From the sequence record MH359124: a stretch of DNA of 64,000 bases. The stretch is one strand, 5' to 3'. The first letter of the stretch is position 1, and the number at the start of each line of letters is the position of its first letter. The notes under the pieces are model-generated. The model ran no database searches. It was not told where the DNA came from and was given only the letters and a program-made list of their open reading frames with translations. The translations under genes were made by a program, and so were the position numbers. Shown in pieces: positions 7,261 to 32,748 of this stretch. This stretch comes from Escherichia phage SF.

Positions 7261-8994
7261 TTACCCAATATCAATACGAGATCCGTCAACAGTGTATTGT
7301 CCTGAAGCTATTGAGCTCATTGTAGACATTGTCTCTGACCAATCCCCGGCAACAGTCATATCAACATTACCATTAACAGTCCATTTAACGTTTCCGTTGA
7401 CGGTGTAATCATGATTCCCTTCGACCTGAGTTTTAGCATCGCCTTTAACAAGAATATCTGCGTTTCCATCAACAACTATTTTGATATTGCCCTTAACGTA
7501 AAGAGTTCCATCGCCTTCAACAGTTTTAGATTGGTTACCACGAATAAAGATTGTGTCATTGCCGTCTATTTGATGGAGGCGGTCTGCCATGTTATAATAT
7601 ATTTCGTTAGCACCAACGTTAACAAGTTTATCACCGGAAATCAAGAAGTTCCCATCACCATTAGTGATGTCAAAAAGGTCTTCTACAGTTTTACGAGTGC
7701 GACGACCGGACGGAGAAACTTCCTCATATGACCCTGTTGGATGAACTAAGCGATAACGTTCGTTACCTGGAGTGTCGTCAAACTCTTGGATATGACCGCT
7801 TTCTGTTTCCATAGCGTGAACATACGGGTATTCACCACGATAACTTGATTCCGGTTCTTTAAAAAGGATACGCGAATCTAACGGAACAGGAGGACCGGCT
7901 GGGTCTTCTGGATCTGTATTTCTAGTAACTAAATCGGCACCAACTCCCGGTGAAGGCGGTGTTTTAACAGGAACACCATATGATTCCATGTTACCAGTTA
8001 AAATAATTGTTGTTACACGTGAAGCACGCCCTTTAGTCTGTTGGAACCATAACGAATCGCGTCCAGATTTGTATGCGGTTTTCCAATCACCTGCGGCCAT
8101 TGCTTTAAGCATAGTATTGAATTTTGCTACACCACCAACGCCCATCTGGAAGCACATGTTTTCTAATGCCATTTGGCGAGATCTGTTCATTTTAGCATAA
8201 ACAGGACCTACTTTAGAATTAGAACGAATGTCTTTCTGCATCTTAGCAAGGTCCTTCTCAAATAACGCTGTTGCTTCTTCTAACGTAATAGTTCCCGGAT
8301 TTCCTGTTACTTCACGCCCTACTTGATCAGATAACAATTTATTAATCCGAGACATATCTCGGGTTTTTTCCATTACGATAAGGTGTCCAATACCTACTGT
8401 AGGATATCCGAGATGGTCCCAATACACTTTATCACGAAGACCTTCGTCACGACGTAACATTTCTGTTATTGTAAAATTAGGGTCATCATCTTCTGGAATA
8501 TTTGCTAAATCTGTATCATCTGGGTTTATACCATAATCTAAGTTGTTATCTTGAATTACGTTAGAGTTCGAATAATAACCAGCTTCACCACCTTGGTTTA
8601 GTACGTTCGTATCATTACCTAAACGTCGCGGATACTGACCTGTCGGGTCTGAAAAACCTTCAAGTCTATTAGGCTTTTCACGTACTATTCCGCCGTATGT
8701 ACCAAGTACAATCCCGTTTGTTTTCCATTTGTCTAAGAAATGACCATATACTCGAGTTCCTTCAACAGGACCTGTAACAGAACCACCAATACCAGACATT
8801 GATGCAGACGTAATAGGTTGAATAACAGTCATCCATGGAAGTTTTTCTGTAGGAATACCTTGTACGTCACCTTGTGCTCTCTGTGCTGGATGAAGACCAA
8901 CGACTCGAACTCGAACTCGCCCTTGTTTTAATGGGTCCATTCTGTCCTCGACAACGCCCACGAACCAATTAAGGCTACTGCTAATCATTTCCAT
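7261..8994 (-). CDS. 5: baseplate hub subunit and tail lysozyme gp5
   Basis: 577 aa; N-terminus MEMISSSLNWFVGVVEDRMDP and central T4-lysozyme-like domain (LRDKVYWDHLGYPTVGIGH); C-terminal beta-helix VxGxxxx repeats. Confidence 0.95.
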   Translation of the reverse strand: MEMISSSLNWFVGVVEDRMDPLKQGRVRVRVVGLHPAQRAQGDVQGIPTEKLPWMTVIQPITSASMSGIGGSVTGPVEGTRVYGHFLDKWKTNGIVLGTYGGIVREKPNRLEGFSDPTGQYPRRLGNDTNVLNQGGEAGYYSNSNVIQDNNLDYGINPDDTDLANIPEDDDPNFTITEMLRRDEGLRDKVYWDHLGYPTVGIGHLIVMEKTRDMSRINKLLSDQVGREVTGNPGTITLEEATALFEKDLAKMQKDIRSNSKVGPVYAKMNRSRQMALENMCFQMGVGGVAKFNTMLKAMAAGDWKTAYKSGRDSLWFQQTKGRASRVTTIILTGNMESYGVPVKTPPSPGVGADLVTRNTDPEDPAGPPVPLDSRILFKEPESSYRGEYPYVHAMETESGHIQEFDDTPGNERYRLVHPTGSYEEVSPSGRRTRKTVEDLFDITNGDGNFLISGDKLVNVGANEIYYNMADRLHQIDGNDTIFIRGNQSKTVEGDGTLYVKGNIKIVVDGNADILVKGDAKTQVEGNHDYTVNGNVKWTVNGNVDMTVAGDWSETMSTMSSIASGQYTVDGSRIDIG

Positions 8995-13125: not shown

Positions 13126-13146
13126 AAACAACCTCAAGGAAATAAA

Positions 13147-13458
13147 ATGAAAACCTATCAAGAGTTTATCGCTGAAGCTACTAAAGCCGATAAAAATTTT
13201 ATTATTAACACCACCGGTCCGTTAGATGATGAATACGCTAATGCTATTATTAAGTCAATTTCTAATCAAGGCGTTGAAGTAACAAATTTCGAATATAAGA
13301 AAAATGATACTTATATGATAATTAGTATCAAAAAAGGTTCAAAAGCCAAAATTAAATCCGCATTTGGTGTTATGCGAGTTGACCAAATCGATAACCACGA
13401 TTTTTCACAAACAGGGGCCAAACGCCAAAATACCATTTCTTCTAAAGGCATAAAATAA
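13147..13458 (+). CDS. internal-protein-like injected protein with capsid targeting sequence
   Basis: N-terminus MKTYQEFIAEA equals T4 IP capsid-targeting sequence; 103 aa. Confidence 0.7.
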   Translation: MKTYQEFIAEATKADKNFIINTTGPLDDEYANAIIKSISNQGVEVTNFEYKKNDTYMIISIKKGSKAKIKSAFGVMRVDQIDNHDFSQTGAKRQNTISSKGIK

Positions 13459-17893: not shown

Positions 17894-18487
17894 ATGAACA
17901 CACTGAAGAAACTTGTTGAATTCATCCGCACTAAACTGGGTACTGCTATGGCTAAAAATCTAACTGTCGAAGAACAGTATAACGCAGCTGCAGATAAGTT
18001 GATTACCCAAATCAAAGAACTAAAAACGGCTTCTGTTAAATCTATTAATGAAGAAAAACGTATTCGCGAACTTGTTATTGAAAAGAATAAGCAAGCCGCT
18101 TCTAAGGAACGTGAAATTCGTAAGCTCCTGGCTGAAGGACAAGATGTTACCATGCATGCTAAGCTTGGTCTTCTGTATCGTCGAACTGCCGAACAACTTA
18201 ATACAAAAGCTGATGGGTATGCCGCTATGCGAATTGAAATTGCTCGTAAGGTGGTTGAACTTGACGACGCTCGTCAGAATCTGGCAATCAAACTCGAATA
18301 CATTCGTGAAACTCGAGCAGCTAATGCCCTTGGTATCTCTACGGCCGATGATGTAATTGAAATCGCTGCACTGACTAAGGTTGATATCGAAGACACTCTG
18401 ACTCGTGTTGAAACGTTCAATGGCACTCCAACCGGTGTCGAAACCACTTCTGCTGATGTACAAGAATATATTAACTCTTTGAAATAA
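17894..18487 (+). CDS. coiled-coil protein, possibly PspA/IM30-like
   Basis: 198 aa, heptad-rich, Lys/Glu-rich helices; family assignment tentative. Confidence 0.5.
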
Positions 18488-18495
18488 AATAATAC

Positions 18496-18517
18496 GGAGG
18501 ACTCCGGTCCTCCTTTT
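18496..18517 (+). terminator. rho-independent terminator GGAGGAC-TCCG-GTCCTCC-TTTT
   Basis: Perfect 7 bp GC stem, tetraloop, T-run. Confidence 0.7.
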
Positions 18518-18536
18518 GGATAATAAAGGAGTTAAC

Positions 18537-19133
18537 ATGCGAAACCAAAATAATGATATTGACTCGATGTTCGAAGAGTTCCGAAATAAGGTAAATCCAC
18601 CTACGTCTTTAGTTGATTCATTACGATATGTTGCAACTGGACGTAAATGGTACTGGTCGTCTTCTTATGAGACAACTGAATATGCAAATAACCGAAAATC
18701 TTTATTAGCCCCAGGTATTATGATTCATGATATCGGAGCTATTGCTAAACTAGTTGCAGACCATGATATTAGATTCACCGATTTCGTTGCTCCTACGTGG
18801 TCTGTTTGTTGTTTAAACACTGAATGGGAATATATCAGCGAACGCTCTGAAGATTATTATGGTTTTAGAGACAAGCTTTTAAGGTCTAACATGTTTTATA
18901 TTGATACAGAAGTTCTGGTCAATAATAAAAAATACTATTTCACTTTAATAGTCGATTCTGAAACTATGTATGAAGGCAAGCCTTTGCTTAAAAGAGTTGA
19001 TGCTTTAAGTGCTATTGATGCGCTTTATGAAACCATGGTTGTTAGTCCTAATTTCACTAACAATTTAATCCTTGAGCAATTTATTATGGAATGTAGAGAA
19101 TATGTCAAAGCCAACCCTATACATGCCAAGTAA
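18537..19133 (+). CDS. hypothetical protein with C-terminal FIMECR motif
   Basis: ATG after AAGGAG; MRNQNNDIDSMFEEF. Confidence 0.55.
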   Translation: MRNQNNDIDSMFEEFRNKVNPPTSLVDSLRYVATGRKWYWSSSYETTEYANNRKSLLAPGIMIHDIGAIAKLVADHDIRFTDFVAPTWSVCCLNTEWEYISERSEDYYGFRDKLLRSNMFYIDTEVLVNNKKYYFTLIVDSETMYEGKPLLKRVDALSAIDALYETMVVSPNFTNNLILEQFIMECREYVKANPIHAK

Positions 19134-24181: not shown

Positions 24182-24670
24182 ATGAATATATTTGAAATGC
24201 TTCGTAATGACGAAGGTCTTAGACTGACTTTATACAAAGACACTGAAGGCTTTTGGACGATTGGCATAGGCCATTTAGTAGCAAAGAACCCATCTTTAGC
24301 CGTAGCTAAAGCTGAACTTGACAGAATGATCGGACGTAAATGCGACGGTACAATTACCCTTGATGAGGCTGAAAAGCTATTTAATGAAGACGTTGATAAA
24401 GCTGTTCGCGGAATCTTGGGTAATGCTAAACTTAAACCGGTATATGATTCTTTAGATGCAGTTCGTCGATGTGCGTTGGTCAATATGGTCTTCCAAATGG
24501 GTGTAGCAGGCGTCGCTGGTTTTACTAATTCTCTTCGTATGCTTCAACAGAAACGTTGGGACGAAGCGGCAGTAAATCTAGCCCAATCTAAATGGTATCG
24601 TCAGACACCTAATCGCGCGAAACGCGTAATCTCAACATTTAAAACAGGAACTTGGAAAGCGTATATATGA
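24182..24670 (+). CDS. e: endolysin (T4 lysozyme, gene e)
   Basis: [32 protein letters not shown]...; near-identical to T4 lysozyme over full length (162 aa). Confidence 0.97.
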
Positions 24671-24948
24671 AAACATATAGTGAATTTTTATCAGAATCTA
24701 TTCTTAACGAAGCTACTGACACCTTTGCAACTAAGCTAGGTGCAGCTTTGGTTGAAGCCGAAAGTCTATTAGCACGTATTTCTGAACTTGCTAGTAAGAT
24801 AGATACTCGCAAATTTGAACGTACAAGCGATATCGTTAAGCTTGAAGCCTTGTTGCGTATGTGCGATAAACCGGAAGAAATCGCCAAGAACGGTTCGCTG
24901 ATGAAACAACGTCTTGAAAAATATATTTCAGGCGCTTCAGAAAAATAG
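24667..24948 (+). CDS. internal-protein-like protein ([13 protein letters not shown])
   Basis: ATG overlaps lysozyme stop (ATATGA); adjacent to e like T4 ipIII/ipII. Confidence 0.6.
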
Positions 24949-25004
24949 TGTTTACTTCCTCCAAGGGTTTTGATACTATACATTCATCAACTACTTGGAG
25001 GAAA
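24947..25004 (+). promoter_or_regulatory. early promoter (GTTTAC, TACTAT) with arms TTCCTCCAAG / CTTGGAGGAA pairing upstream region to the denV RBS
   Basis: gtGTTTACTTCCTCCAAGggttttgaTACTATacattcatcaactaCTTGGAGGAAattATG. Confidence 0.5.
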
Positions 25005-25006
25005 TT

Positions 25007-25420
25007 ATGACTCGTATCAATTTAACACTTGTTTCTGAACTGACCGACCAACATCTTATGGCTGAGTATCGTGAATTACCACGCGTATTTGGTGCAGTCC
25101 GTAAACATGTTCAAAACGGTAAACGTGTAAAGGATTTTAAAATCTCTCCAACATTTATCTTAGGCACAGGTCACGTAACATTCTTTTACGACAAACTCGA
25201 ATTTTTACGTTTACGTCAAATCGAGCTAATCGCTGAATGCTTGAAACGTGGTTTCAAAATCAAGGACACAACTGTCCAGGATATTTCCGACATCCCTGCC
25301 GAATTTCGTAATAATTATATCCCGACTGAAGCGTCCATTGCGATAAGTCAAGCACGCTTAGACGAAAAAATTGCCCAACGTCCTACTTGGTACAAATACT
25401 ATGGTAAATCAATTTACTAA
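25007..25420 (+). CDS. denV: endonuclease V, pyrimidine dimer DNA glycosylase (DenV)
   Basis: [35 protein letters not shown]...; matches T4 DenV (137 aa). Confidence 0.95.
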
Positions 25421-25449
25421 GGAAAAAGGTGGCGATGGTAAAGCTTAAA

Positions 25450-25500
25450 CAGTTTACGCTTAAGTATTAATATGGTATAATTACTCTATCAAAACAAACA
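25450..25500 (+). promoter_or_regulatory. early promoter (GTTTAC -35, TATAAT -10)
   Basis: caGTTTACgcttaagtattaatatggTATAATtactctatcaaaacaa. Confidence 0.55.
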
Positions 25501-25511
25501 AGGAAACAAAA

Positions 25512-25814
25512 ATGAAAACATATCAAGAATTTATTACCGAAGCGCGAGTGAGTGCAGGTAAATTAGAAGCCGCTATAAATAAAAAGGCCCATTCATTTCA
25601 CGATTTGTCCGATAAAGACCGTAAGAAACTTGTAAGCCTTTATATTGACAAAGAGCGTATTCTCGCTCTTCCTGGCGCTAATGAAGGTAAACAGGCCAAG
25701 CCTTTGAATGCTGTCGAAAAGAAAATTGATAACTTTGCTTCTAAATTCGGTATGTCTATGGATGACCTTCAGCAAGCGGCTATCGAAGCAGCTAAAGTAA
25801 TTAAAGGTAAATAA
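25512..25814 (+). CDS. ipII: internal protein II-like (CTS MKTYQEFITEA)
   Basis: 100 aa; N-terminal CTS; resembles recalled T4 IPII; next to denV as in T4. Confidence 0.65.
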   Translation: MKTYQEFITEARVSAGKLEAAINKKAHSFHDLSDKDRKKLVSLYIDKERILALPGANEGKQAKPLNAVEKKIDNFASKFGMSMDDLQQAAIEAAKVIKGK

Positions 25815-25868
25815 CAGTTTACTTTCTCCTAGAATTGTGATAGTATATTCATAATTACTTGGAGAGGT
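25814..25868 (+). promoter_or_regulatory. PeSL-like early promoter (GTTTAC; TAGTAT) with CTCC/GGAG arms
   Basis: caGTTTACtttctcctagaattgtgaTAGTATattcataattacttGGAGAGG. Confidence 0.45.
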
Positions 25869-25986
25869 AAAATGACTCAATGAAAAAATTTTAATGAAGC
25901 CACACTGGTATAAGTATTAAGGCAAAAATATTTACATTCAAATAACATGGGAACAAGCTGGACCTCATGATTCTATGAGGGATTCC

Positions 25987-26085
25987 CGCCAACCTGTAAT
26001 AAGGTCGAGCCCAAGTGCGGTAATGGGTAATACAGAAATGGACAATTCGCGTGCCATGGAATGGCACAAACCTAGAGAGAACAAA
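25987..26085 (+). repeat. about 100 nt repeated leader element, copy A (upstream of CTS gene 26086)
   Basis: CCAACCTGTAATAAGGTCGAGCCCAAGTGCGGTAATGGGT...CGTGCCATGGAATGGCAC...AGAGAACAAAATG; second copy at 26485. Confidence 0.6.
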
Positions 26086-26415
26086 ATGAAAACATATCAA
26101 GAGTTTATCACTGAAGTTACATTATCTGCGGAACAGAAAGCTGCTATCGAAGAAGGTAAAAATCCCAAAGTAACATATAAAGTAAATAGTAAAGGCGTTT
26201 TTGATGGCTTGGTTCAAGACCCTGAATTGAAAAAAGCTCTTTCTAAAACTAATGCGTACTTTGCTCCTAAATTTAACACAGCCGGTGTACTTATTGGATT
26301 GGATGTATTCAACTCTAAAGGTGTTCTATCTAATGCCTTTGGTTATGCCGCTAACAAAATTACTAAAGCCGCATGGGAATCCAATACCAAACAAGCTCAA
26401 AAGCCTAGAGTATAA
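26086..26415 (+). CDS. internal-protein-like protein (CTS MKTYQEFITEV)
   Basis: Start at internal ATG; track N-terminal extension covers the repeated leader; 109 aa. Confidence 0.65.
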   Translation: MKTYQEFITEVTLSAEQKAAIEEGKNPKVTYKVNSKGVFDGLVQDPELKKALSKTNAYFAPKFNTAGVLIGLDVFNSKGVLSNAFGYAANKITKAAWESNTKQAQKPRV

Positions 26416-26484
26416 TTCTTGCCTAATAAAGGGAAACGCAACCTCTCCTTATGAACGTCGAGTCCTCTGAGTGATGTACCTTTT

Positions 26485-26587
26485 CCAACCTGTAATAAGG
26501 TCGAGCGCAATGCGGTAATGGGTTTACATAGCGAGTCGAAGGACATAACACGTGCCACGGAATGGCCCAACCTAAAAGAGAAACTAA
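26485..26587 (+). repeat. repeated leader element, copy B (upstream of gene 26588)
   Basis: CCAACCTGTAATAAGGTCGAGCGCAATGCGGTAATGGGT...CGTGCCACGGAATGGCCC...AAGAGAAACTAAATG. Confidence 0.6.
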
Positions 26588-27127
26588 ATGAGAACATTTT
26601 TAACTGGACCTTATCTATCCCTGATGAATGCTTTTACACACCATTCTGATGCTAGAGTAGAAGAAATTTGTAAGAATGGTTATATCCCGCCATTTGAAGA
26701 CGTACTCAAGCAGTACTGTACACTTCGTTTAGACGGCGGCAGACAATCAGGTAAATCAACTGCAGTAACTAATTTTGCGGCTAATTGGCTGCACGACGGT
26801 GGAACAGTTATTGTTCTTTCTAATACTTCAGCTTATGCTAAAATTTCTGCTGGCAACATTAAAAAAGAATTTTCTCGTTATTCTAGCGATGATATTCGAT
26901 TCCGTTTATTTACTGATTCTGTCCGTAGTTTTATTGGCAATGAAGGTTCTAAATTCCGTGGATTAACGCTTTCTCGTATTCTGTATATAATTGACGAGCC
27001 TATTAAAGCTCCTGATATGGATAAGATTTACAATGTCCATATTAAATCAGTACAGCACTGCTGCAAAAGCAAATATTGCATCAGCGGTACTGCTCGTCCT
27101 CAATTTTTTGTGATTGGACTGCAATGA
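26588..27127 (+). CDS. small P-loop NTPase
   Basis: Walker A GGRQSGKST and Walker B-like LYIIDEP; 179 aa. Confidence 0.6.
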   Translation: MRTFLTGPYLSLMNAFTHHSDARVEEICKNGYIPPFEDVLKQYCTLRLDGGRQSGKSTAVTNFAANWLHDGGTVIVLSNTSAYAKISAGNIKKEFSRYSSDDIRFRLFTDSVRSFIGNEGSKFRGLTLSRILYIIDEPIKAPDMDKIYNVHIKSVQHCCKSKYCISGTARPQFFVIGLQ

Positions 27128-27432
27128 TGACCACTATTGAAGTTTTTGAGTATTGTTATAACAGCCCAGTATGCAATAAAAGGGCTCTTGTAGAAAATTA
27201 CGAGATTTACCATTTTAAACCTAAACGATACCGTTTGACTAAAGGTCCGTTCGCAGGGCAGCAGGTTCTTTGTACTGCTCCTAATGCACGGTTGATGACT
27301 AGTATTCCGCATTTCAAAATGGAATTTATTGATGGGCCATTTAAGGGATTAATCACTCAAAGTTTAATGGCGTTTAATTCCGACCCATTTTTGATTAAAG
27401 AAAAATCTTGGATAAATTTATTTTCTAATTGA
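27124..27432 (+). CDS. hypothetical protein
   Basis: ATG overlapping upstream stop; MMTTIEVFEYCYNSPVCNKR. Confidence 0.5.
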   Translation: MMTTIEVFEYCYNSPVCNKRALVENYEIYHFKPKRYRLTKGPFAGQQVLCTAPNARLMTSIPHFKMEFIDGPFKGLITQSLMAFNSDPFLIKEKSWINLFSN

Positions 27433-27438
27433 GGTTAT

Positions 27439-27801
27439 ATGAAAGCATATCAAATTCTTGAAGGTGCACATAAAGGCACTATTTATTTTGAAGACGGTAC
27501 TCAAGCCCGGATTATCGTCTCTAAGACTTTTAAAGAAGACGCTATTGTAGACCCGGAAATTTTCTACGGTTTGAATGCCCGTGAAATTGAAATTGAACAT
27601 CAACCTAAAGTTAAAATTGAAGGTGGTCAACACCTGAACGTTAACGTTCTGCGTCGTGAAACTTTGGAAGATGCAGTTAAGCATCCAGAAAAATATCCGC
27701 AGCTGACCATCCGTGTATCCGGTTATGCAGTTCGCTTTAACTCTCTGACTCCGGAACAGCAGCGCGACGTTATCGCTCGTACCTTTACTGAGAGTCTATA
27801 A
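27439..27801 (+). CDS. grcA: autonomous glycyl radical cofactor (GrcA/YfiD-like; T4 Y06I-type)
   Basis: C-terminal RVSGYAVRF glycyl radical motif; C-terminal 60 aa appear identical to E. coli GrcA as recalled; E. coli-like codons in 3' half. Confidence 0.85.
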
Positions 27802-28025
27802 TGGCTAAATTGATTATAGAAGGGTCTGAAGATGTTTTAAAATGTTTTGCCGCCTGGTTTAGTTGCTCAGGCGAGCAATCATTCATTGAAGCATTTAGAA
27901 CGTGTGATATTACTGGAAAATATCCGTCAACCGATATCACCGTACGCGGATATGGTATTAATGAGCCTATCCAATTGGTCGAATATGACCTTGCCACAGA
28001 TGAGGAAATTCCTTATGTCGATTGA
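27801..28025 (+). CDS. hypothetical protein
   Basis: 74 aa ORF starting at grcA stop. Confidence 0.5.
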   Translation: MAKLIIEGSEDVLKCFAAWFSCSGEQSFIEAFRTCDITGKYPSTDITVRGYGINEPIQLVEYDLATDEEIPYVD

Positions 28026-28281
28026 AGACATCAAAGGCTACAAGCCGCATACCGATGATAAAATCAGTAAAGTGAACGCTATTAAAGATGCAGAAGTCCG
28101 TCTTGGATTGTTGTTTGATGCTCTGATTGAAGAAGCATATATCTTGAAAGAAAATGAAACAGAGCAACAAACCAAAGAAGATATGGATGCAGTGCAGGCT
28201 CTTAAGTATGCTAAGCAACATCTAAAAGAGGCCAGCATGTGGGCATGTCGTGCAGTATTTCGACCTGAGGAAAAATACTAA
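28015..28281 (+). CDS. hypothetical protein
   Basis: Internal ATG start MSIEDIKGYKPHTDDK. Confidence 0.5.
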   Translation: MSIEDIKGYKPHTDDKISKVNAIKDAEVRLGLLFDALIEEAYILKENETEQQTKEDMDAVQALKYAKQHLKEASMWACRAVFRPEEKY

Positions 28282-28496
28282 TGGCTTCTACTATTACCGG
28301 GTTATTAGACTTTCAAGAAAAGGTCAACAAAATTTGTAGTGAATACTTAAAGTATCTTGAAGAAGACCTTGAAGATTGTAAGGAAGAAGGCGAAGAAGAC
28401 TATGCTGACCAGCGTAGTCGCCAAATCGAAGAGATGAGGCATTTCGCCGATATGGTATCTAAAGAATCTTGGGCTTTAACTCCATTTTATCAATAA
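28281..28496 (+). CDS. hypothetical acidic protein
   Basis: 71 aa. Confidence 0.5.
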   Translation: MASTITGLLDFQEKVNKICSEYLKYLEEDLEDCKEEGEEDYADQRSRQIEEMRHFADMVSKESWALTPFYQ

Positions 28497-28498
28497 AG

Positions 28499-28552
28499 TT
28501 GTTTACTTCTCCTCTAGATGTGTTACTATAGACCTGTCAACTAGAGGAGAAA
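28499..28552 (+). promoter_or_regulatory. PeSL-like early promoter with SD-containing stem (TCTCCTCTAG / CTAGAGGAGA, TACTAT -10 in loop)
   Basis: GTTTACTTCTCCTCTAGatgtgtTACTATagacctgtcaaCTAGAGGAGAaatcaaaATG. Confidence 0.6.
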
Positions 28553-28557
28553 TCAAA

Positions 28558-29016
28558 ATGACTATCAATTCAGACGTTTTTATCCGCCGTAATAAACTCC
28601 GTCGAATCTTTGAAACGGAGTTCCGCAAAATAAATGCTGGTATAAAAGATGCTGCAAAGTCTCTTGGACTACCAGGCTTTCATATCAAGTATTCTCAACA
28701 TCTCTTAGATCGTGCTATCCAGAGAGAAATAGATGAGAATTACGTTTTTGAATTATTTCGTAAAGTAAAAAATCATGTTAAAGAAGTTGCAGAATTTTTA
28801 TCAATGCCTGCACGTCCAGATGTTGATGAAGATTTTGTCGAAGGTGTCGAATATCGCCCAGGCCGTTTAGAAATAACTGACGGAAATCTTTGGTTAGGAC
28901 TTACAGTTTGTCGCGAAAATCCGGCATTCAAAATGAAGACTCTCCAATGCAGAATGGCTATTATTAACAGTAAACGACTACCAGGAAAAGCTTCTAAAGC
29001 AGTGATTAAAATCTAG
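28558..29016 (+). CDS. regB: RegB site-specific endoribonuclease
   Basis: MTINSDVFIRRNKLRR...YSQHLLDRAIQREIDE...; matches T4 RegB (152 aa). Confidence 0.9.
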   Translation: MTINSDVFIRRNKLRRIFETEFRKINAGIKDAAKSLGLPGFHIKYSQHLLDRAIQREIDENYVFELFRKVKNHVKEVAEFLSMPARPDVDEDFVEGVEYRPGRLEITDGNLWLGLTVCRENPAFKMKTLQCRMAIINSKRLPGKASKAVIKI

Positions 29017-29024
29017 AGGTAAAC

Positions 29025-29567
29025 ATGAGAAAAGCACTACTCGCTGGTCTATTTGCTCTTTCATTATCAGCACATAGCTCCGAGCATACTTTTAGTAATG
29101 TCCAACTCGATAACTTGAATTATGCTTATCAGTTTGGGGAACAGTTTTCTAAGGACGGAAAATTTAAAACGCATGAAAATATGCATAAGAAAGGACTTGG
29201 ATACATAATGGCCGCAATACTATGGCAGGAATCATCTGCCGGTATTAATCTTAAAGATAAGAAAGGTCACCATGCGTATGGAATGTTCCAAAATTATCTA
29301 CCAACAATGAAGGCAAGAATTAACCAGCTTGGTTATAATATGTCTGATGCCCAAATTAAGAAAATGCTATCTAAGCGGTCTAATTCAGCCAGATGGGCTT
29401 ATATCGAATTTTCTTATTGGTTAAATATACATAACGGGGATATAAGAAAAGCTATATCCTCATATAATGCGGGATGGAAGACAAGTGCTGGAAGTAAATA
29501 TGCTTCTGAAGTCCTAGAAAAGGCTAATTACCTTAAATCAAATAAACTACTGGAAATAAAAGAATGA
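29025..29567 (+). CDS. secreted SLT-domain lytic transglycosylase-like protein
   Basis: N-terminal signal peptide MRKALLAGLFALSLSAHS; ES...GMFQ and SYNAGW motifs. Confidence 0.6.
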   Translation: MRKALLAGLFALSLSAHSSEHTFSNVQLDNLNYAYQFGEQFSKDGKFKTHENMHKKGLGYIMAAILWQESSAGINLKDKKGHHAYGMFQNYLPTMKARINQLGYNMSDAQIKKMLSKRSNSARWAYIEFSYWLNIHNGDIRKAISSYNAGWKTSAGSKYASEVLEKANYLKSNKLLEIKE

Positions 29568-29911
29568 CCAAAATGTTGGCTTTAATAGTTGGCTTGGTTT
29601 CATTTAACACTCTTGCTAATACTACATATACTGATGTAACGGAGTATACAAACAGAACGGCGTCTGATTATTGTGGTAAAAGTCAAGAGTGTAAAGTAGA
29701 TTTTTCACAAAAATTGTTATATGCATATAAAGACGGAGAAAAAGATGGGGCGTCTAGTAGGTTCAAGGCGTCTACCTTAATTAAAAGATACTATAAAAAA
29801 TGGCAAATATTAGAATGCTCGGTGGCGGAACCTAAAGATAAGGCAGCATGCAATTCTATGGTGGACCGTCTAGTTGACTCTTATACTAGAGGACTTGCAG
29901 CAAGTGATTAA
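29564..29911 (+). CDS. small secreted/periplasmic protein
   Basis: Signal peptide MTKMLALIVGLVSFNTLA; 115 aa. Confidence 0.55.
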   Translation: MTKMLALIVGLVSFNTLANTTYTDVTEYTNRTASDYCGKSQECKVDFSQKLLYAYKDGEKDGASSRFKASTLIKRYYKKWQILECSVAEPKDKAACNSMVDRLVDSYTRGLAASD

Positions 29912-30371
29912 AAACTATATCAAGGGCGATATTGTCGCCCTGTTTTCTAAAGGTAATAATATCGCTCACGGGTGTAATTGTTTTCATACAATGGGCGCTG
30001 GTGTGGCAGGACAATTAGCAAAGGCTTATCCAAAAATTCTGGAAGCCGATAAACTTCAAACCGAATTCGGAGACGAGTCTAAACTCGGGACTTATTCGGT
30101 TTATGAAAAATATTTTAAGACACATAAAGCTTATTGCTTTAATCTTTATACACAGTTTGAGCCTGGACCTAATTTTGAGTACTCTGCTTTAATGAATTGT
30201 ATAATAGAATTAAATGAATTCGGAAAGAATAAGATAACAAAACCTGTAATTTATATGCCAAGAATTGGTGCAGGTATCGGTGGTGGAAACTGGGATGTCA
30301 TCGAAGAGATTTTAGATACGTATTCCACTAAACTAGAAATTGTGATTGTTGATTGGGAACCATTATTATGA
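29874..30371 (+). CDS. macrodomain protein, TARG1/DarG-like putative ADP-ribosyl hydrolase
   Basis: IAHGCNCFHTMGAGVAGQ and PRIGAGIGGGNW resemble TARG1 motifs (AHCISEDCRMGAGIA, PRIGCGLDRL); start uncertain (TTG 29874 or GTG 29904). Confidence 0.6.
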   Translation: MTLILEDLQQVIKNYIKGDIVALFSKGNNIAHGCNCFHTMGAGVAGQLAKAYPKILEADKLQTEFGDESKLGTYSVYEKYFKTHKAYCFNLYTQFEPGPNFEYSALMNCIIELNEFGKNKITKPVIYMPRIGAGIGGGNWDVIEEILDTYSTKLEIVIVDWEPLL

Positions 30372-30580
30372 ATATACATTATCCACATCCATATGACCCA
30401 AAGAATAAGGCAGTAATTATTCGTCAATGGGAACGCATTTGTCGTACTAAATGTCCAATTAATAGTCCGCATGATGTAGATAAAGACTACATTGGAACAT
30501 TCGTTGAATATACCTTTATTGATAAGAAAGGTCGTAAACAACACGTAGAAGAATATTGCTTAAAGGTGACATGGTTATGA
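30368..30580 (+). CDS. hypothetical protein
   Basis: ATGA overlap start MNIHYPHPYD. Confidence 0.5.
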   Translation: MNIHYPHPYDPKNKAVIIRQWERICRTKCPINSPHDVDKDYIGTFVEYTFIDKKGRKQHVEEYCLKVTWL

Positions 30581-30762
30581 GTTTAAGTAAAGAACAAAAA
30601 GACCGACTGTTTTCTCTTATTCATGAAGTTATGGATAAAAACAATGAATTGGAAAAAGTTTGTGATGAATGCGGTCCTTTTAATACCGATGAATATGAAG
30701 AACTGTGTAAAGATTTCGACGATAAAGAACAAGAACTTATTGATTATATAAATTCCTTATGA
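30577..30762 (+). CDS. hypothetical acidic protein
   Basis: MSLSKEQKDRLFSLIHEV; paralog-like to next ORF. Confidence 0.5.
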   Translation: MSLSKEQKDRLFSLIHEVMDKNNELEKVCDECGPFNTDEYEELCKDFDDKEQELIDYINSL

Positions 30763-30947
30763 TTACTCGCGAACAAAAGAATGAAATACGATTTTTAATC
30801 AGCGAAATTATTAGTTTAGAACGAGATTTATCTTTTGAATTGGCTTCGGATTATGGAGATGCTGAAACATACTACGAATTAGTAAAATCTATCGATAAAG
30901 CTGAAAATGATTTAGAAACATATTTAGAAAATTTAACTAAGGACTAA
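30759..30947 (+). CDS. hypothetical acidic protein
   Basis: MITREQKNEIRFLISEII; similar pattern to previous ORF. Confidence 0.5.
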   Translation: MITREQKNEIRFLISEIISLERDLSFELASDYGDAETYYELVKSIDKAENDLETYLENLTKD

Positions 30948-30948
30948 G

Positions 30949-31530
30949 ATGGCGAGTTTAATTTTTACTTATGCAGCAATGAATGCTGGAAAATCTGCTT
31001 CTCTTTTGACTGCTGCACATAATTATAAAGAACGTGGCATGGGTGTATTAGTTCTTAAACCGGCTATTGATACTCGCGATTCAAAAGGTGAAATAGTCTC
31101 TCGTATTGGTATTCGTCAAGACGCCAATATAATTACAAAAGACATGGATATCTTTGAATTCTATAAATGGGCTGCAGCACAAAAGGATATTCATTGTGTA
31201 TTTGTTGACGAAGCTCAGTTCTTAACCACTGAAAAGGTGTATCAACTTAGTCGTATTGTTGACGTATACAATGTGCCGGTAATGGCATATGGACTACGAA
31301 CAGATTTTAAAGGTAATCTATTTGAAGGTTCTCAAGCATTAATGGCTATTGCCGATAAGCTTGTTGAACTTAAAGGTGTCTGTCATTGTGGTAAAAAGGC
31401 CACAATGGTAGCTAGAGTCACGGAAGACGGACTTCCAATTACAGATGGCAGTCAAATTGAAATTGGTGATACCGATAGATATGTGTCATTATGCCGGAAG
31501 CATTGGAATGATTTGACAGGGTTGTTATAA
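30949..31530 (+). CDS. tk: thymidine kinase
   Basis: 193 aa; P-loop AAMNAGKSA; C-terminal CHCGKKA zinc motif; matches T4 Tk. Confidence 0.92.
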   Translation: MASLIFTYAAMNAGKSASLLTAAHNYKERGMGVLVLKPAIDTRDSKGEIVSRIGIRQDANIITKDMDIFEFYKWAAAQKDIHCVFVDEAQFLTTEKVYQLSRIVDVYNVPVMAYGLRTDFKGNLFEGSQALMAIADKLVELKGVCHCGKKATMVARVTEDGLPITDGSQIEIGDTDRYVSLCRKHWNDLTGLL

Positions 31531-31557
31531 ATACTAATATCTAACCAAGAGGTATAT

Positions 31558-31770
31558 ATGCAGCAATTAAACGAAAGACAACTTCGTAATCTTACTGTAA
31601 CCCAATTGGATGAAATCCGAAGAGAATTAGGACATTCTATTTCTCATTTAAACGAGGATATCCGTCAAACTGGTTCTAAAGCTGATTATACACGCAAGCG
31701 CAAGCTGGAAAAATACCTCACAGATGTTAAGGCCGTCCAAAGGCGAAAAATAAATACTGGCCAAAATTAA
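31558..31770 (+). CDS. hypothetical protein
   Basis: 70 aa basic ORF. Confidence 0.5.
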
Positions 31771-31782
31771 CAGGAGGCCTAT

Positions 31783-32085
31783 ATGGCCTTAAGAGCGATA
31801 GCCATTGCGGCGATGCTGGGGTTTTTTGCAGCAACAACTCCTATCGTTGGCACTGCATATGTCGACCCATACTTTGACAACTTTATGGAATCAGGGATTA
31901 AAAACGTATATACTTTGTTCGAAATTCAAAATGTTGAGAATTCCGAAAAATTTTATAAGTATATGGCAAAGCATTACAAAAATAGCCCCTGTGATGATGC
32001 ATTTGAATGTCATGAACAAGGCATAAAAACTGCCAGACAATTTGCCGAGTTCATGAAAATAAAATTAGAGCCTACATCTATCTAA
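31783..32085 (+). CDS. small secreted protein
   Basis: Signal peptide MALRAIAIAAMLGFFAATTPIVGTA. Confidence 0.55.
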   Translation: MALRAIAIAAMLGFFAATTPIVGTAYVDPYFDNFMESGIKNVYTLFEIQNVENSEKFYKYMAKHYKNSPCDDAFECHEQGIKTARQFAEFMKIKLEPTSI

Positions 32086-32091
32086 TTTACT

Positions 32092-32121
32092 AGCCCCTTC
32101 CGAAAGGTTGGGGCTTTTTTG
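32092..32121 (+). terminator. rho-independent terminator AGCCCC-TTCCGAAAGGTT-GGGGCT-TTTTTT (repeat copy 3)
   Basis: Identical stem-loop to 16121 copy. Confidence 0.7.
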
Positions 32122-32128
32122 CATTTAG

Positions 32129-32184
32129 CAGTTTACTTCTCCTCAGGTTGTGTTATAGTAGACCTTACTTACTAGAGGAGAACG
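32129..32184 (+). promoter_or_regulatory. PeSL-like early promoter with SD-containing stem (TTCTCCTC / GAGGAGAA; TATAGT in loop)
   Basis: caGTTTACTTCTCCTCaggttgtgtTATAGTagaccttacttactaGAGGAGAAcgttATG. Confidence 0.6.
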
Positions 32185-32186
32185 TT

Positions 32187-32366
32187 ATGTCACGTAAAGA
32201 AAAAATTTCTAAGTTAATGTTTTTAATTGAAGAGTACGCTAACGCTGTATCCGATTGGGAAAATGCCCACGGGTGTGAAGACGGTGATATCGATATCAAT
32301 AAGGCAATGAAAAAGATGGCTGAAGCCCACACCGAATTGCAAATGTATGTTAACGAGATTATGTGA
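32187..32366 (+). CDS. hypothetical protein
   Basis: MSRKEKISKLMFLIEEYANAV. Confidence 0.5.
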   Translation: MSRKEKISKLMFLIEEYANAVSDWENAHGCEDGDIDINKAMKKMAEAHTELQMYVNEIM

Positions 32367-32373
32367 GGACATT

Positions 32374-32580
32374 ATGCTTTACGATTATACCGGAAAATCT
32401 GAAGACGGTGTACTTGAACTTTTACCTGAAAGCGCTGAAGATGATGATATGGTGGTGATGTTTTGTAAAAATGGTCCTGGGGATAAGGGATGGATTTATC
32501 TTCGCCAAGAAAATGACTTAATTGTTTTGGACCCTAAACAAGTTGAAGAACTTTATCAACATTTAAAACACAATCGGTAG
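32374..32580 (+). CDS. hypothetical protein
   Basis: ATG after GAGG; MLYDYTGKSEDG. Confidence 0.5.
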   Translation: MLYDYTGKSEDGVLELLPESAEDDDMVVMFCKNGPGDKGWIYLRQENDLIVLDPKQVEELYQHLKHNR

Positions 32581-32626
32581 TTTACGACTTGGTAGGACTA
32601 TGATATAGTAATCCTACCAAAACAAA
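32578..32626 (+). promoter_or_regulatory. PeSL-like promoter (GTTTAC; TATAGT inside GGTAGGACTA / TAATCCTACC)
   Basis: aGTTTACgacttGGTAGGActatgaTATAGTaaTCCTACCaaaacaa. Confidence 0.6.
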
Positions 32627-32637
32627 TGGAGAACAAA

Positions 32638-32748
32638 ATGAAACTTTTGCTTATCGCTTATGTTGTAGTACAATACAATTATCCGATGTTTACTTATAAC
32701 ATGGTAAACAGCATAGTGAATCTTATTGAAACGAGTATGGTAAAATGA
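32638..32748 (+). CDS. small hydrophobic peptide (36 aa)
   Basis: ATG after GGAG; MKLLLIAYVVVQYNYPMF; below track length cutoff. Confidence 0.3.
   Translation: MKLLLIAYVVVQYNYPMFTYNMVNSIVNLIETSMVK

Follow-up and report, generated by a model that had tools for sequence, protein, structure and literature searches.

In Escherichia phage SF, the regB gene, the denV gene and a gene for a 59-aa DUF7438 protein are each preceded by an early promoter lying within an inverted repeat whose right arm is the Shine-Dalgarno (SD) sequence of the gene itself, and we consider that each of these sites probably acts as a promoter-gated mask over the translation-initiation region. All three are found in the 64,000 nucleotides of sequence record MH359124 analyzed here (the window; Table 1), at 28501-28560 (regB), 24950-25009 (denV) and 32131-32189 (DUF7438). 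[quoted passage not shown] RNA polymerase recruited to this promoter is expected to initiate about 7 nt past the -10 box, in the loop; the T4-type early-promoter consensus puts the -10 hexamer at positions -12 to -7 (PMC1524935). With its start site in the loop, the immediate-early mRNA made from this promoter would lack the 5' arm, and its SD would be free on a 21-22 nt leader and translatable. Read-through RNA of the delayed-early, middle or late period, in whatever amount it arises, would carry both arms and form an 8-11 bp helix over the GGAG, and because this helix would bury the motif, the cistron should be translationally silent on long transcripts. With the long RNAs masked, synthesis of RegB, DenV and the DUF7438 protein would be tied to the brief period of early-promoter activity. 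As a side effect, pairing on long transcripts would probably conceal the GGAG from RegB as well. For T4 denV and mobD.5, the Fig. 5 legend of PMC1702504 describes reverse-transcriptase stops at promoters in primer extension; the legend names motB and modD.5, and we infer that one of these promoters belongs to denV.

Table 1. Features of the promoter-hairpin cassettes and their surroundings (positions in the window; TSS, transcription start site predicted from the T4-type early-promoter consensus).
Feature	Position	Strand	Basis or remark
denV: stop TAG of preceding ORF	24946..24948		1 nt to -35 hexamer
denV: early promoter -35, GTTTAC	24950..24955	+	GTTTAC-N15-19-TANNNT motif match
denV: hairpin 5' arm, TTCCTCCAAG	24956..24965	+	in promoter spacer
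denV: promoter -10, TACTAT	24974..24979	+	in loop
denV: predicted TSS	~24986
denV: hairpin 3' arm, CTTGGAGGAA (SD)	24994..25003	+	pairs with 5' arm in folds
denV: CDS, pyrimidine-dimer glycosylase / endonuclease V, ATG 25007	25007..25420	+	Pfam Pyr_excise PF03013
Fourth cassette, same type, imperfect and nested, TTTCTCCTAG ... CTTGGAGAGG	25817..25884	+	fold -20.7 kcal/mol, z -3.9
regB: stop TAA of preceding ORF	28494..28496		4 nt to -35 hexamer
regB: early promoter -35, GTTTAC	28501..28506	+	GTTTAC-N15-19-TANNNT motif match
regB: hairpin 5' arm, TTCTCCTCTAG	28507..28517	+	anti-SD mimic, -35/-10 spacer, 5' of predicted TSS
regB: promoter -10, TACTAT	28524..28529	+	in hairpin loop
regB: predicted TSS	~28536
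regB: hairpin 3' arm, CTAGAGGAGAA (SD)	28541..28551	+	GGAG at 28546-49
regB: CDS, endoribonuclease RegB, ATG 28558	28558..29016	+	Pfam PF10715, E 8.8e-69
Intrinsic terminator after rI, GAAA-loop hairpin then U6	32092..32120	+	-17 kcal/mol, z -3.0
Third cassette: -35, GTTTAC	32131..32136	+	GTTTAC-N15-19-TANNNT motif match
Third cassette: 5' arm, TTCTCCTC	32137..32144	+	pairs with SD arm in folds
Third cassette: -10, TATAGT	32154..32159	+	sequence
Third cassette: predicted TSS	~32166
Third cassette: 3' arm, GAGGAGAA (SD)	32175..32182	+	pairs with 5' arm in folds
Third cassette: DUF7438 gene, 59 aa, ATG 32187	32187..32366	+	Pfam

A preliminary description of this DNA had proposed inverted repeats at the three genes, with the ribosome-binding site as the right arm. 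The repeats are all present, the positions given in that description lying 2-3 nt upstream of the -35 hexamers, and the 3' arm is the SD at every site. The arms match over 11 bp at regB and 10 bp at denV, both without a mismatch, and over 8 bp at the third site, with loops of 23-30 nt. The same description held that the ribosome-binding site would be sequestered on read-through transcripts and free on promoter-proximal ones, and our folding predictions agree: the predicted energies of the long RNAs are -21.2, -19.8 and -16.0 kcal/mol, and every base of the SD is paired in all three, while the short own-promoter RNAs reach only -2.0 to -2.5 kcal/mol (z > 0). An unpaired SD has a computed probability of 0.00, 0.00 and 0.01 in the long RNAs versus 0.80, 0.43 and 0.74 in the short ones. 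The pairing probability of the GGAG with the left arm stays at about 1.0 in contexts of up to 700 nt (-500/+200). The hairpins alone have energies of -16.4 (regB), -18.2 (denV) and -13.1 kcal/mol (third site); the hairpin of T4 gene e, reported to lower lysozyme synthesis about 100-fold (PMC3014915), gives -15.1 kcal/mol in the same calculation, so that the hairpins of regB and denV equal or exceed the stability of this experimentally proven one.

Could C/T-rich spacers simply happen to complement purine-rich SDs, one such cassette having then been copied? With shuffled pre-TSS sequences the SD is still moderately occluded, the mean Pu being about 0.3, and a chimera control discriminates weakly (natural Pu 0.07 versus chimeric 0.21), since the CTCC common to all spacer arms makes the SD core pair promiscuously. 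However, when the pre-TSS segment was shuffled, SD occlusion equal to the natural one arose in only 4-12 of 300 trials, and among the 81 SD-bearing plus-strand gene starts of the window the regB, denV and third sites rank first, second and fourth for the longest uninterrupted helix over the SD. The folding z-scores against shuffles are -3.1 for regB and -2.9 for denV, and about -3 to -5 when further computations are included. Orthologues, moreover, carry helices of 10-15 bp in which several pair types have been exchanged on both sides. Chance with shared ancestry is therefore very improbable as a general account, and for regB and denV it is largely refuted. It may apply to the third site taken alone, where z is -0.33 and the cassette is a paralogue of that of regB: the two are very similar in sequence and share the right arm and the -35/left-arm start exactly, and owing to this similarity they do not count as independent events. 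The arms of the third site show no variation and no covariation among the three available relatives, and the case for a mask is weakest here.

The decisive evidence for the mask, at the level of sequence comparison, comes from relatives. T4 shares the design at both regB (arms TTTTCCTCTTGACTG/CAGTTAAGAGGAGAA; -23.1 kcal/mol in the same calculation) and denV (arms TCTCCTGTAG/CTACAGGAGA; -18.0 kcal/mol). In every sampled regB lineage with a RegB identity of at least 55%, the SD is masked by pre-TSS sequence, with at least 10 different arm sequences among these lineages, and about 30 distinct denV promoters likewise mask the SD with pre-TSS sequence. Two independent geometries occur: the 5' arm either lies in the spacer or consists of the -10 box and discriminator, which then pair with the region from the SD through the AUG, the arm still preceding the TSS. 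Compensatory changes, whose absence would have refuted the idea according to the preliminary description, were found. Covariation among regB orthologues is 0.311 versus 0.123 in shuffles (0/500), with slid controls at or below 0.101; it is 0.341 versus 0.137 for regB and denV combined and 0.468 versus 0.263 for the second geometry, in which 87% of cells are paired. Overall, values of 0.31-0.47 thus stand against 0.12-0.26 in shuffles, and the positions flanking the GGAG show three to four Watson-Crick pair types. Because cassettes move between genes, some of this covariation may reflect swaps of whole palindromic cassettes, and not stepwise compensation.

If the repeats acted as DNA palindromes, for example by forming a cruciform or binding a dimeric protein, or had arisen through quasipalindrome-templated mutation, no RNA function would be needed at all. 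Mutation of that kind has its classic model in T4, and perfect DNA inverted repeats are the only thing directly observed. Yet the helices contain G·U and A·C pairs at a ratio of 19:3, whereas about 1:1 would be expected of a strand-symmetric process, and this excess points to the sense-strand RNA. The loops of 23-30 nt also speak against such a palindrome, as does the convergence of two geometries on a single target, the SD and AUG; a common protein site is ruled against by the wide differences in arm sequence among lineages. We therefore regard an exclusively DNA-level role as highly improbable.

The promoter-gated mask has also to be weighed against the published view of PeSL elements, according to which the stem would mainly be an attenuator or terminator for transcripts from upstream and a homology patch for gene shuffling by recombination, its overlap with the SD being incidental. 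The sites do have the parts that define a PeSL, an early promoter and a stem-loop with SD and ATG at the 3' end, and a PeSL stem cut lacZ expression as a strong terminator does (PMC2839356). The cassettes recur, and the genes that follow them in different phages are unrelated: T4 mobD.5 is not homologous to the window's DUF7438 gene, and a fourth cassette in the window, at 25817, followed only by a mini-ORF (ATGACTCAATGA), matches those of L035 denV and upstream of T4 ipIII. On the other hand, all three stems lack a following U-tract, and the third site already has a genuine terminator ending about 10 nt upstream, which limits read-through into it. A search of the 60 nt 5' of the regB and denV promoters revealed no terminator-like site. 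The SD is always the 3' arm, in two geometries and dozens of lineages, and the covariation tracks the nucleotides flanking the GGAG. The motif GTTTAC-N15-19-TANNNT occurs 20 times in the window versus 4.9 expected, and most other promoters there carry a different, shorter hairpin that avoids the SD; the full mask is restricted to about 3 of the window's 23 early-promoter units, so that masking is gene-specific and not a general promoter property. An attenuator or terminator with incidental SD overlap is thus unlikely, and a role in recombination would be compatible with the SD mask without replacing it.

The mask might also be opened by translation itself. The upstream stop codons lie just 8-11 nt 5' of the 5' arm at denV and regB, within the footprint reach of a terminating ribosome, which might transiently open the helix; translation from long RNA would then be proportional to that of the upstream neighbour instead of being silenced. 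Such a ribosome, however, would melt only the outer pairs and not the CTCC/GGAG core. The -10/discriminator arm of the second geometry lies about 25-30 nt past the stop, out of reach, and the mask is equally conserved, while the ORF before the third cassette ends about 50 nt away with the terminator in between. Coupling as the main behaviour of these sites therefore seems quite unlikely.

Another view would make protection from RegB primary: the helix would hide the GGAG on polycistronic RNA and spare downstream cistrons, silencing being secondary. The GGAG is indeed the RegB motif, as had been pointed out, and it is cleaved only in single-stranded RNA, secondary structure readily inhibiting the reaction; 16 RegB-resistant GGAG sites of T4 lie in stable structures (PMC1702504). 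The hairpin would thus shield the motif from RegB and not present it. In T4 and RB69-type phages, RegB targets the SD of regB itself (PMC3014915). The SDs of T4 denV and mobD.5, however, resist RegB in vivo by virtue of their sequence, even in free RNA (PMC1702504), and under the 11-nt rule GGAGRAYARAA the window's regB has a C at position 9 and the third site a C at position 7, both disfavoured. The mask is therefore kept where shielding is probably unneeded, and shielding as its primary purpose is distinctly improbable.

Among known systems, the promoter-in-hairpin gates of T4 (e, soc, 49 and I-TevI; also segB and Aeh1 mobE) have the same mechanism as that proposed here, and the stability of the gene e hairpin is similar. 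In these gates the SD and/or AUG form the 3' arm and the 5' arm precedes the TSS of the proximal promoter, so that long transcripts are silent and proximal ones translated (PMC3014915; PMC2988022). In the gates described, however, the proximal promoter is late, or middle for some homing-endonuclease genes, and expression is delayed, whereas the early promoter found here would confine expression to the first minutes and insulate it from later read-through; here, too, the 5' arm lies within the promoter itself, in the spacer or as -10 box plus discriminator. We found no description of an early-promoter version in the literature, although older T4 papers may contain one. PeSL elements (Arbiol et al. 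2010; Comeau et al. 2014) also share an A/T-rich upstream region and occur repeatedly between genes in variable regions, before genes that differ from phage to phage. To call the sites PeSL variants, as the preliminary description did, is apt for this likeness but not for the stem: the stems in the literature form five subclasses, located before, inside or directly behind the promoter and without the SD, and the roles proposed for them are attenuation and recombination, not translational masking, whereas the present ones span the promoter and end in the SD, outside all five. RegB is also known to autoregulate regB mRNA by cutting the GGAG of its SD, the very motif that the hairpin would mask; this control is conserved among T4 relatives, RB69-type phages among them (PMC3014915). 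In it, RegB acts in trans on single-stranded GGAG with an A-rich 3' context (PMC1702504). The hairpin, in contrast, acts in cis and would bar RegB, so that the two would concern different transcript populations. In bacterial leaders such as riboswitch platforms and RNA thermometers, a CUCC-type anti-SD in cis pairs with the SD and blocks 30S binding. Unlike in those leaders, no ligand or temperature switch is implied here; the switch would be the promoter from which the transcript originates.

[quoted passage not shown] The stems reach from the spacer to the SD, and the -10 box and the predicted transcription start site (TSS) lie within a loop of 23-30 nt. The preliminary description gave the three inverted repeats correctly, with the ribosome-binding site as the right arm, and the Pfam assignments agree with its naming of regB and denV. 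The region from 27.5 to 33.5 kb is 97.6% identical to Escherichia phage PHB12 and 97.5% identical to Shigella phage phi25-307, a Mosigvirus, that is, an RB69-type relative of T4. Early transcription in the window runs along the + strand. The pattern GTTTAC-N15-19-TANNNT has 20 matches against 4.9 expected, 19 of the 20 on that strand, and the proximal promoters of the three sites are of this early type (GTTTAC-N17/18-TAnnnT). An internal-head-protein gene precedes denV.

Promoter, hairpin and gene coordinates of the three cassettes in the window
Cassette	Strand	-35 box	5' arm	-10 box	Predicted TSS (from consensus)	3' arm	GGAG in SD	ATG	Gene	Product and context
regB	+	GTTTAC 28501-06	TTCTCCTCTAG 28507-17	TACTAT 28524-29	~28536	CTAGAGGAGAA 28541-51	28546-49	28558	28558-29016	RegB, Pfam PF10715, E 9e-69
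denV	+	GTTTAC 24950-55	TTCCTCCAAG 24956-65	TACTAT 24974-79	~24986	CTTGGAGGAA 24994-25003	24997-25000	25007	25007-25420	DenV, Pfam PF03013
Third site	+	GTTTAC 32131-36	TTCTCCTC 32137-44	TATAGT 32154-59	~32166	GAGGAGAA 32175-82	32177-80	32187	32187-32366	59-aa DUF7438 protein (Pfam); directly after the rI antiholin gene

Among the 81 SD-bearing gene starts of the + strand, the longest uninterrupted SD-covering helices of regB, denV and the third site (11, 10 and 8 bp) rank first, second and fourth. Read-through RNAs of 81-82 nt fold at -21.2 kcal/mol (z -3.1) for regB, -19.8 (z -2.9) for denV and -16.0 (z -0.33) for the third site, and the hairpins alone at -16.4 (z -3.1), -18.2 (z -5.3) and -13.1 kcal/mol (z -1.4), respectively. 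Given its z-scores, the third site is marginal when taken alone. It is also not an independent event, since its cassette and that of regB agree over most of their sequence: the -35/left-arm starts are identical, and so are the right arms. Chance pairing is possible as an explanation for this site only. An RNase III site was ruled out, as the helices are only 8-15 bp long, and an Rfam scan of window positions 24500-32700 returned nothing relevant. The third-longest SD-covering helix of the window, TTAACTCTTT/AAGGAGTTAA at 18471-18539, joins the end of an upstream ORF to the SD of a gene whose start is at 18537 and encloses a terminator-like hairpin, GGAGGACTCCGGTCCTCC, followed by TTTT; there is no GTTTAC promoter at this locus.

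The -10 hexamer of T4-type early promoters covers positions -12 to -7 (PMC1524935), which places the TSS ~7 nt past the hexamer, inside the hairpin loops. The 5' arm is upstream of the predicted TSS at all three sites, and the predicted own-promoter transcript therefore lacks it. Short RNAs beginning at the predicted TSS are weakly folded (-2.0 to -2.5 kcal/mol, z above 0), and the probability that their SD is unpaired is 0.80 for regB, 0.43 for denV and 0.74 for the third site, compared with 0.00, 0.00 and 0.01 in RNAs that include the promoter region. The pairing between GGAG and the 5' arm has a probability of ~1.0 in every context folded, with flanks of at most 500 nt on the 5' side and 200 nt on the 3' side. 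Complete masking of the SD is limited to these three of the 23 early-promoter/gene units in the window, and weaker masks are present at 25817, 16830, 35253, 36656 and 46522. Most of the remaining early promoters (13083, 13458, 13786, 17168, 17823, 20631, 21923, 32580, 34973 and 36656) carry another hairpin of 8-11 bp, in which a spacer arm pairs with an arm just past the -10 box, leaving the -10 box in the loop and the SD untouched. This spacer to post-(-10) hairpin is the classic PeSL-type stem, and it too would be missing from the own-promoter transcript.

The surroundings of regB and denV would permit read-through from upstream. Co-oriented genes and promoters lie upstream of both, the upstream ORFs stop 4 nt (regB) and 1 nt (denV) ahead of the -35 hexamer, and there is no terminator-like site within 60 nt upstream of either promoter. 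A strong terminator stands ahead of the third site. Neither late-promoter (TATAAATA) nor MotA-box matches occur within 500 nt of any of the three sites. The preliminary description had proposed that the SD is sequestered in read-through transcripts and free in promoter-proximal ones. Computationally, by folding and by comparison with relatives, this reading is supported for regB and denV, while masking at the third site is plausible but weak.

Related regB and denV loci were gathered from IMG/VR. T4 itself has the same arrangement at regB (GTTTAC-TTTTCCTCTTGACTG ... CAGTTAAGAGGAGAA; 15 bp including two G·U pairs; -23.1 kcal/mol, z -4.8) and at denV (TCTCCTGTAG ... CTACAGGAGA; -18.0 kcal/mol). 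The SD is masked by sequence 5' of the predicted TSS in all regB lineages in which RegB shares 55% identity or more with that of the window, and at least 10 different arm sequences are in use, such as UCUCCUGUAAG/CUUACAGGAGA, AUCUCCUUUUAGU/ACUAAAAGGAGAU and AUCCUCAUUUG/CAAAUGAGGAU, the last with an altered SD; for the most distant RegB homologues (40-43% identity) the mask is weak or absent. Across ~30 distinct denV promoters of the GTTTAC type, the probability of an unpaired SD is at most 0.18 in the long RNA versus 0.3-0.8 in the short one.

The masks come in two geometries. Besides the spacer-arm form described so far (type A), many lineages use a type B hairpin, in which the 3' part of the -10 hexamer and the discriminator form the 5' arm and the region from the SD to the start codon forms the 3' arm (TATGATGTCTTCC ... 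GGAGGACATCATG; TATAGTAGCCTT ... GGAGGCTACTATG). In both types the 5' arm is upstream of the start site, and some lineages have type B at regB as well (comparison loci L129 and L136/137). This variety bears on the idea that the hairpins serve translational coupling to a ribosome ending on the upstream ORF: at regB and denV the stop codons lie 8-11 nt before the 5' arm, within reach of a terminating ribosome, but in type B and at 32131 the arm is beyond that reach, and we consider coupling quite improbable. In T4, where our survey covered 1-50 kb and 58.5-67.5 kb, a 19-bp type B helix is present at modB (AF158101, ~13130-13190, minus strand), formed by TATGATAGCTTCTG, which is the -10 box plus discriminator, and CGGAGGCTATCATG, which extends from the SD through the AUG. 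T4 motB.2 carries a type A mask and T4 mrh.2 a weaker mask, with a second T4 site at ~8161-8230; the design thus recurs at several T4 early genes. In jumbo-phage relatives (L040 and L042-L044, contigs of 345-378 kb) denV is preceded by a TTGAC-type promoter whose -35 box lies within a GC-rich terminator-like hairpin, gggTTGACttcggtcagccctttttgcTATAAT, and the SD is not masked.

The preliminary description looked to relatives for compensatory changes, and these are present. MAFFT misplaced the arms when given the full regions from -35 to ATG; arm-only constructs were used instead, their register set solely by the invariant CTCC/GGAG core. Covariation, computed on sequences that are related to one another, was 0.311 among regB orthologues (n=19; shuffled 0.123; highest slid control 0.101), 0.341 for regB, denV and the third site combined (n=23; 0.137; 0.099) and 0.468 for type B denV (n=9; 0.263; 0.178), and in each set 0 of 500 shuffles scored as high. 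Both-sided changes affect 11 of the 16 pairs in the regB set. Pairs just 5' of GGAG show three to four Watson-Crick types in the combined set (column 9/28: GC 8, CG 6, UA 5, AU 2), and paired cells make up 87% of the type B set. Since whole cassettes move between genes, some of this covariation may reflect cassette replacement rather than stepwise compensation; each replaced cassette is still a helix ending in the SD. A chimera test, joining the pre-TSS segment of one phage to the translation-initiation region (TIR) of another, discriminated poorly (0.07 versus 0.21) and was kept out of the main evidence because the CTCC core is common to all arms.

Across the helices, G·U and A·C combinations stand at 19:3. 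A strand-symmetric process at the DNA level would yield about equal numbers of the two, so this ratio points to selection on the sense-strand RNA. A role as a DNA palindrome is most improbable, given this bias towards G·U, the length of the loops and the existence of two geometries.

The three hairpins had been taken for variants of the PeSL, the promoter-early stem-loop cassette of T4-type phages. This classification holds for the early promoter and for the repetition and shuffling of the cassettes, and fails for the position of the stem. As in PeSLs, an A/T-rich upstream region and a sigma-70-like early promoter are followed by the SD and start codon, and the cassettes are repeated in the genome and linked to gene gain, loss and exchange among related phages: the same cassette stands before denV, ipIII or a remnant mini-ORF, depending on the phage. 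However, the PeSL papers place the stem in five positions (upstream of the -35 box, overlapping it, in the spacer, overlapping the -10 box, or between the -10 box and the TSS), and in none of these does it take in the SD, whereas the stems of the window span from spacer to SD. The same papers mention neither sequestration nor RegB. An attenuator or a recombination cassette, the roles published for PeSLs, would agree with most of the PeSL features found here and with the clear shuffling of the elements. However, the absence of a U-tract after the stems, which rules out intrinsic terminators, speaks against attenuation, as does the real terminator already ahead of the third site, and the 3' arm is always the SD; we regard this explanation as unlikely.

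Traces of such exchange are visible elsewhere in the window. The early-promoter cassette at 25817-25884, whose hairpin is nested (-20.7 kcal/mol, z -3.9), has nothing but the mini-ORF ATGACTCAATGA behind it, and this mini-ORF opens with the same 7 nt as denV. This cassette is nearly identical to the one driving denV in L035, another comparison locus, and to that ahead of T4 ipIII, and it looks like the footprint of cassette-mediated gene shuffling. The interval from denV to regB (25420-28558) is 1,044 bp shorter than in phi25-307, with flanks ~97% identical; the difference is an indel in a variable region rich in promoter cassettes. The segment 32121-32189 resembles the T4 sequence upstream of mobD.5, with a terminator, an early promoter and the SD AGAGGAGAA after the rI region, and the position is conserved. 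Orthology of T4 mobD.5 and the gene at 32187 was ruled out, as DUF7438 and MobD.5 share no BLASTP similarity.

The GGAG within each SD is the RegB cleavage motif, as had been noted at the outset; a RegB site may carry GGAU in its place and lies in an intergenic region or SD. RegB cleaves the SD of regB itself both in T4 and in those RB69-type phages that have been tested (PMC3014915). The enzyme needs RNA in single-stranded form, and structure readily inhibits it. Its site rule is an 11-nt GGAGRAYARAA with an A-rich 3' side and no C at positions 7 or 9; in T4, the denV SD resists RegB in vivo, and the mobD.5 transcript is RegB-insensitive (PMC1702504). The corresponding 11-nt sites are GGAGAAAUCAA at regB, with C at position 9, GGAGGAAAUUA at denV and GGAGAACGUUA at the third site, with C at position 7. 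Folding predicts that the GGAG is single-stranded only on the short transcript, and the hairpin would shield it from RegB on the long RNA, not present it. Such shielding is plausible as a secondary effect; it does not explain the conservation of the mask at denV.

T4 serves as the reference system in the study of temporal gene control, and heavy read-through transcription is typical of T4 genomes. The best explanation of our observations is a promoter-gated mask of the TIR, in which we infer the start site, the read-through and the translational effects. The transcript from the gene's own early promoter, lacking the 5' arm, would be translated; on read-through RNA from upstream the helix would fold and the cistron would stay silent. 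With an early promoter inside the gate, translation would be limited to the first minutes and the gene insulated from later read-through. If so, the promoter's own DNA sequence doubles as the anti-SD strand, some early genes are "own-promoter only", and the short pulses of RegB, and of T4 ModB, would be enforced beyond promoter shut-off and RegB cleavage. The mask would also offer a concrete, testable reason why identical GGAG sites differ between early and later transcripts. For the annotation and engineering of T4-like phages, RNA abundance over masked genes would not predict protein output, and a masked gene moved without its cassette would have altered timing. More tentatively, and with considerable doubt, the mask may be conserved throughout the Tevenvirinae over a subset of immediate-early genes (regB and denV; in T4 also modB, motB.2 and mrh.2), restricting translation of these enzymes, which are often toxic, to the short time that the early transcripts last and keeping GGAG out of RegB's reach on polycistronic RNA of the middle and late periods. 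It could then be part of the reason, so far unexplained, why RegB destroys early mRNAs and spares the middle and late ones.

Full-text searches that covered the pre-2005 T4 literature only in small part found no description of SD masking embedded in an early promoter, and we did not find described such a combination of promoter-in-hairpin translational gating with PeSL promoter cassettes. Reviews of post-transcriptional control in T4 present only late-promoter cases, or middle-promoter ones for some homing-endonuclease genes (PMC3014915; PMC2988022). Long early transcripts of T4 e, soc, 49 and I-TevI keep the SD and AUG sequestered, and transcripts that start at a late promoter inside the structure leave them free (PMC3014915; PMC2988022); for gene e the effect is ~100-fold (PMC3014915). 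Folded identically, the gene e hairpin reaches -15.1 kcal/mol, and those of regB and denV are at least as stable. T4 regB is under tight production control, its early promoter being shut off at 2-3 min (PMC3014915). The sites described here share with the T4 gates an SD and/or start codon held in a stable helix whose 5' arm lies upstream of the predicted proximal TSS. The difference is in the proximal promoter, which is late or middle in the T4 gates, where expression is delayed, and early at the sites of the window. The principle is familiar, but the feature is a conserved one in the best-studied phage family.
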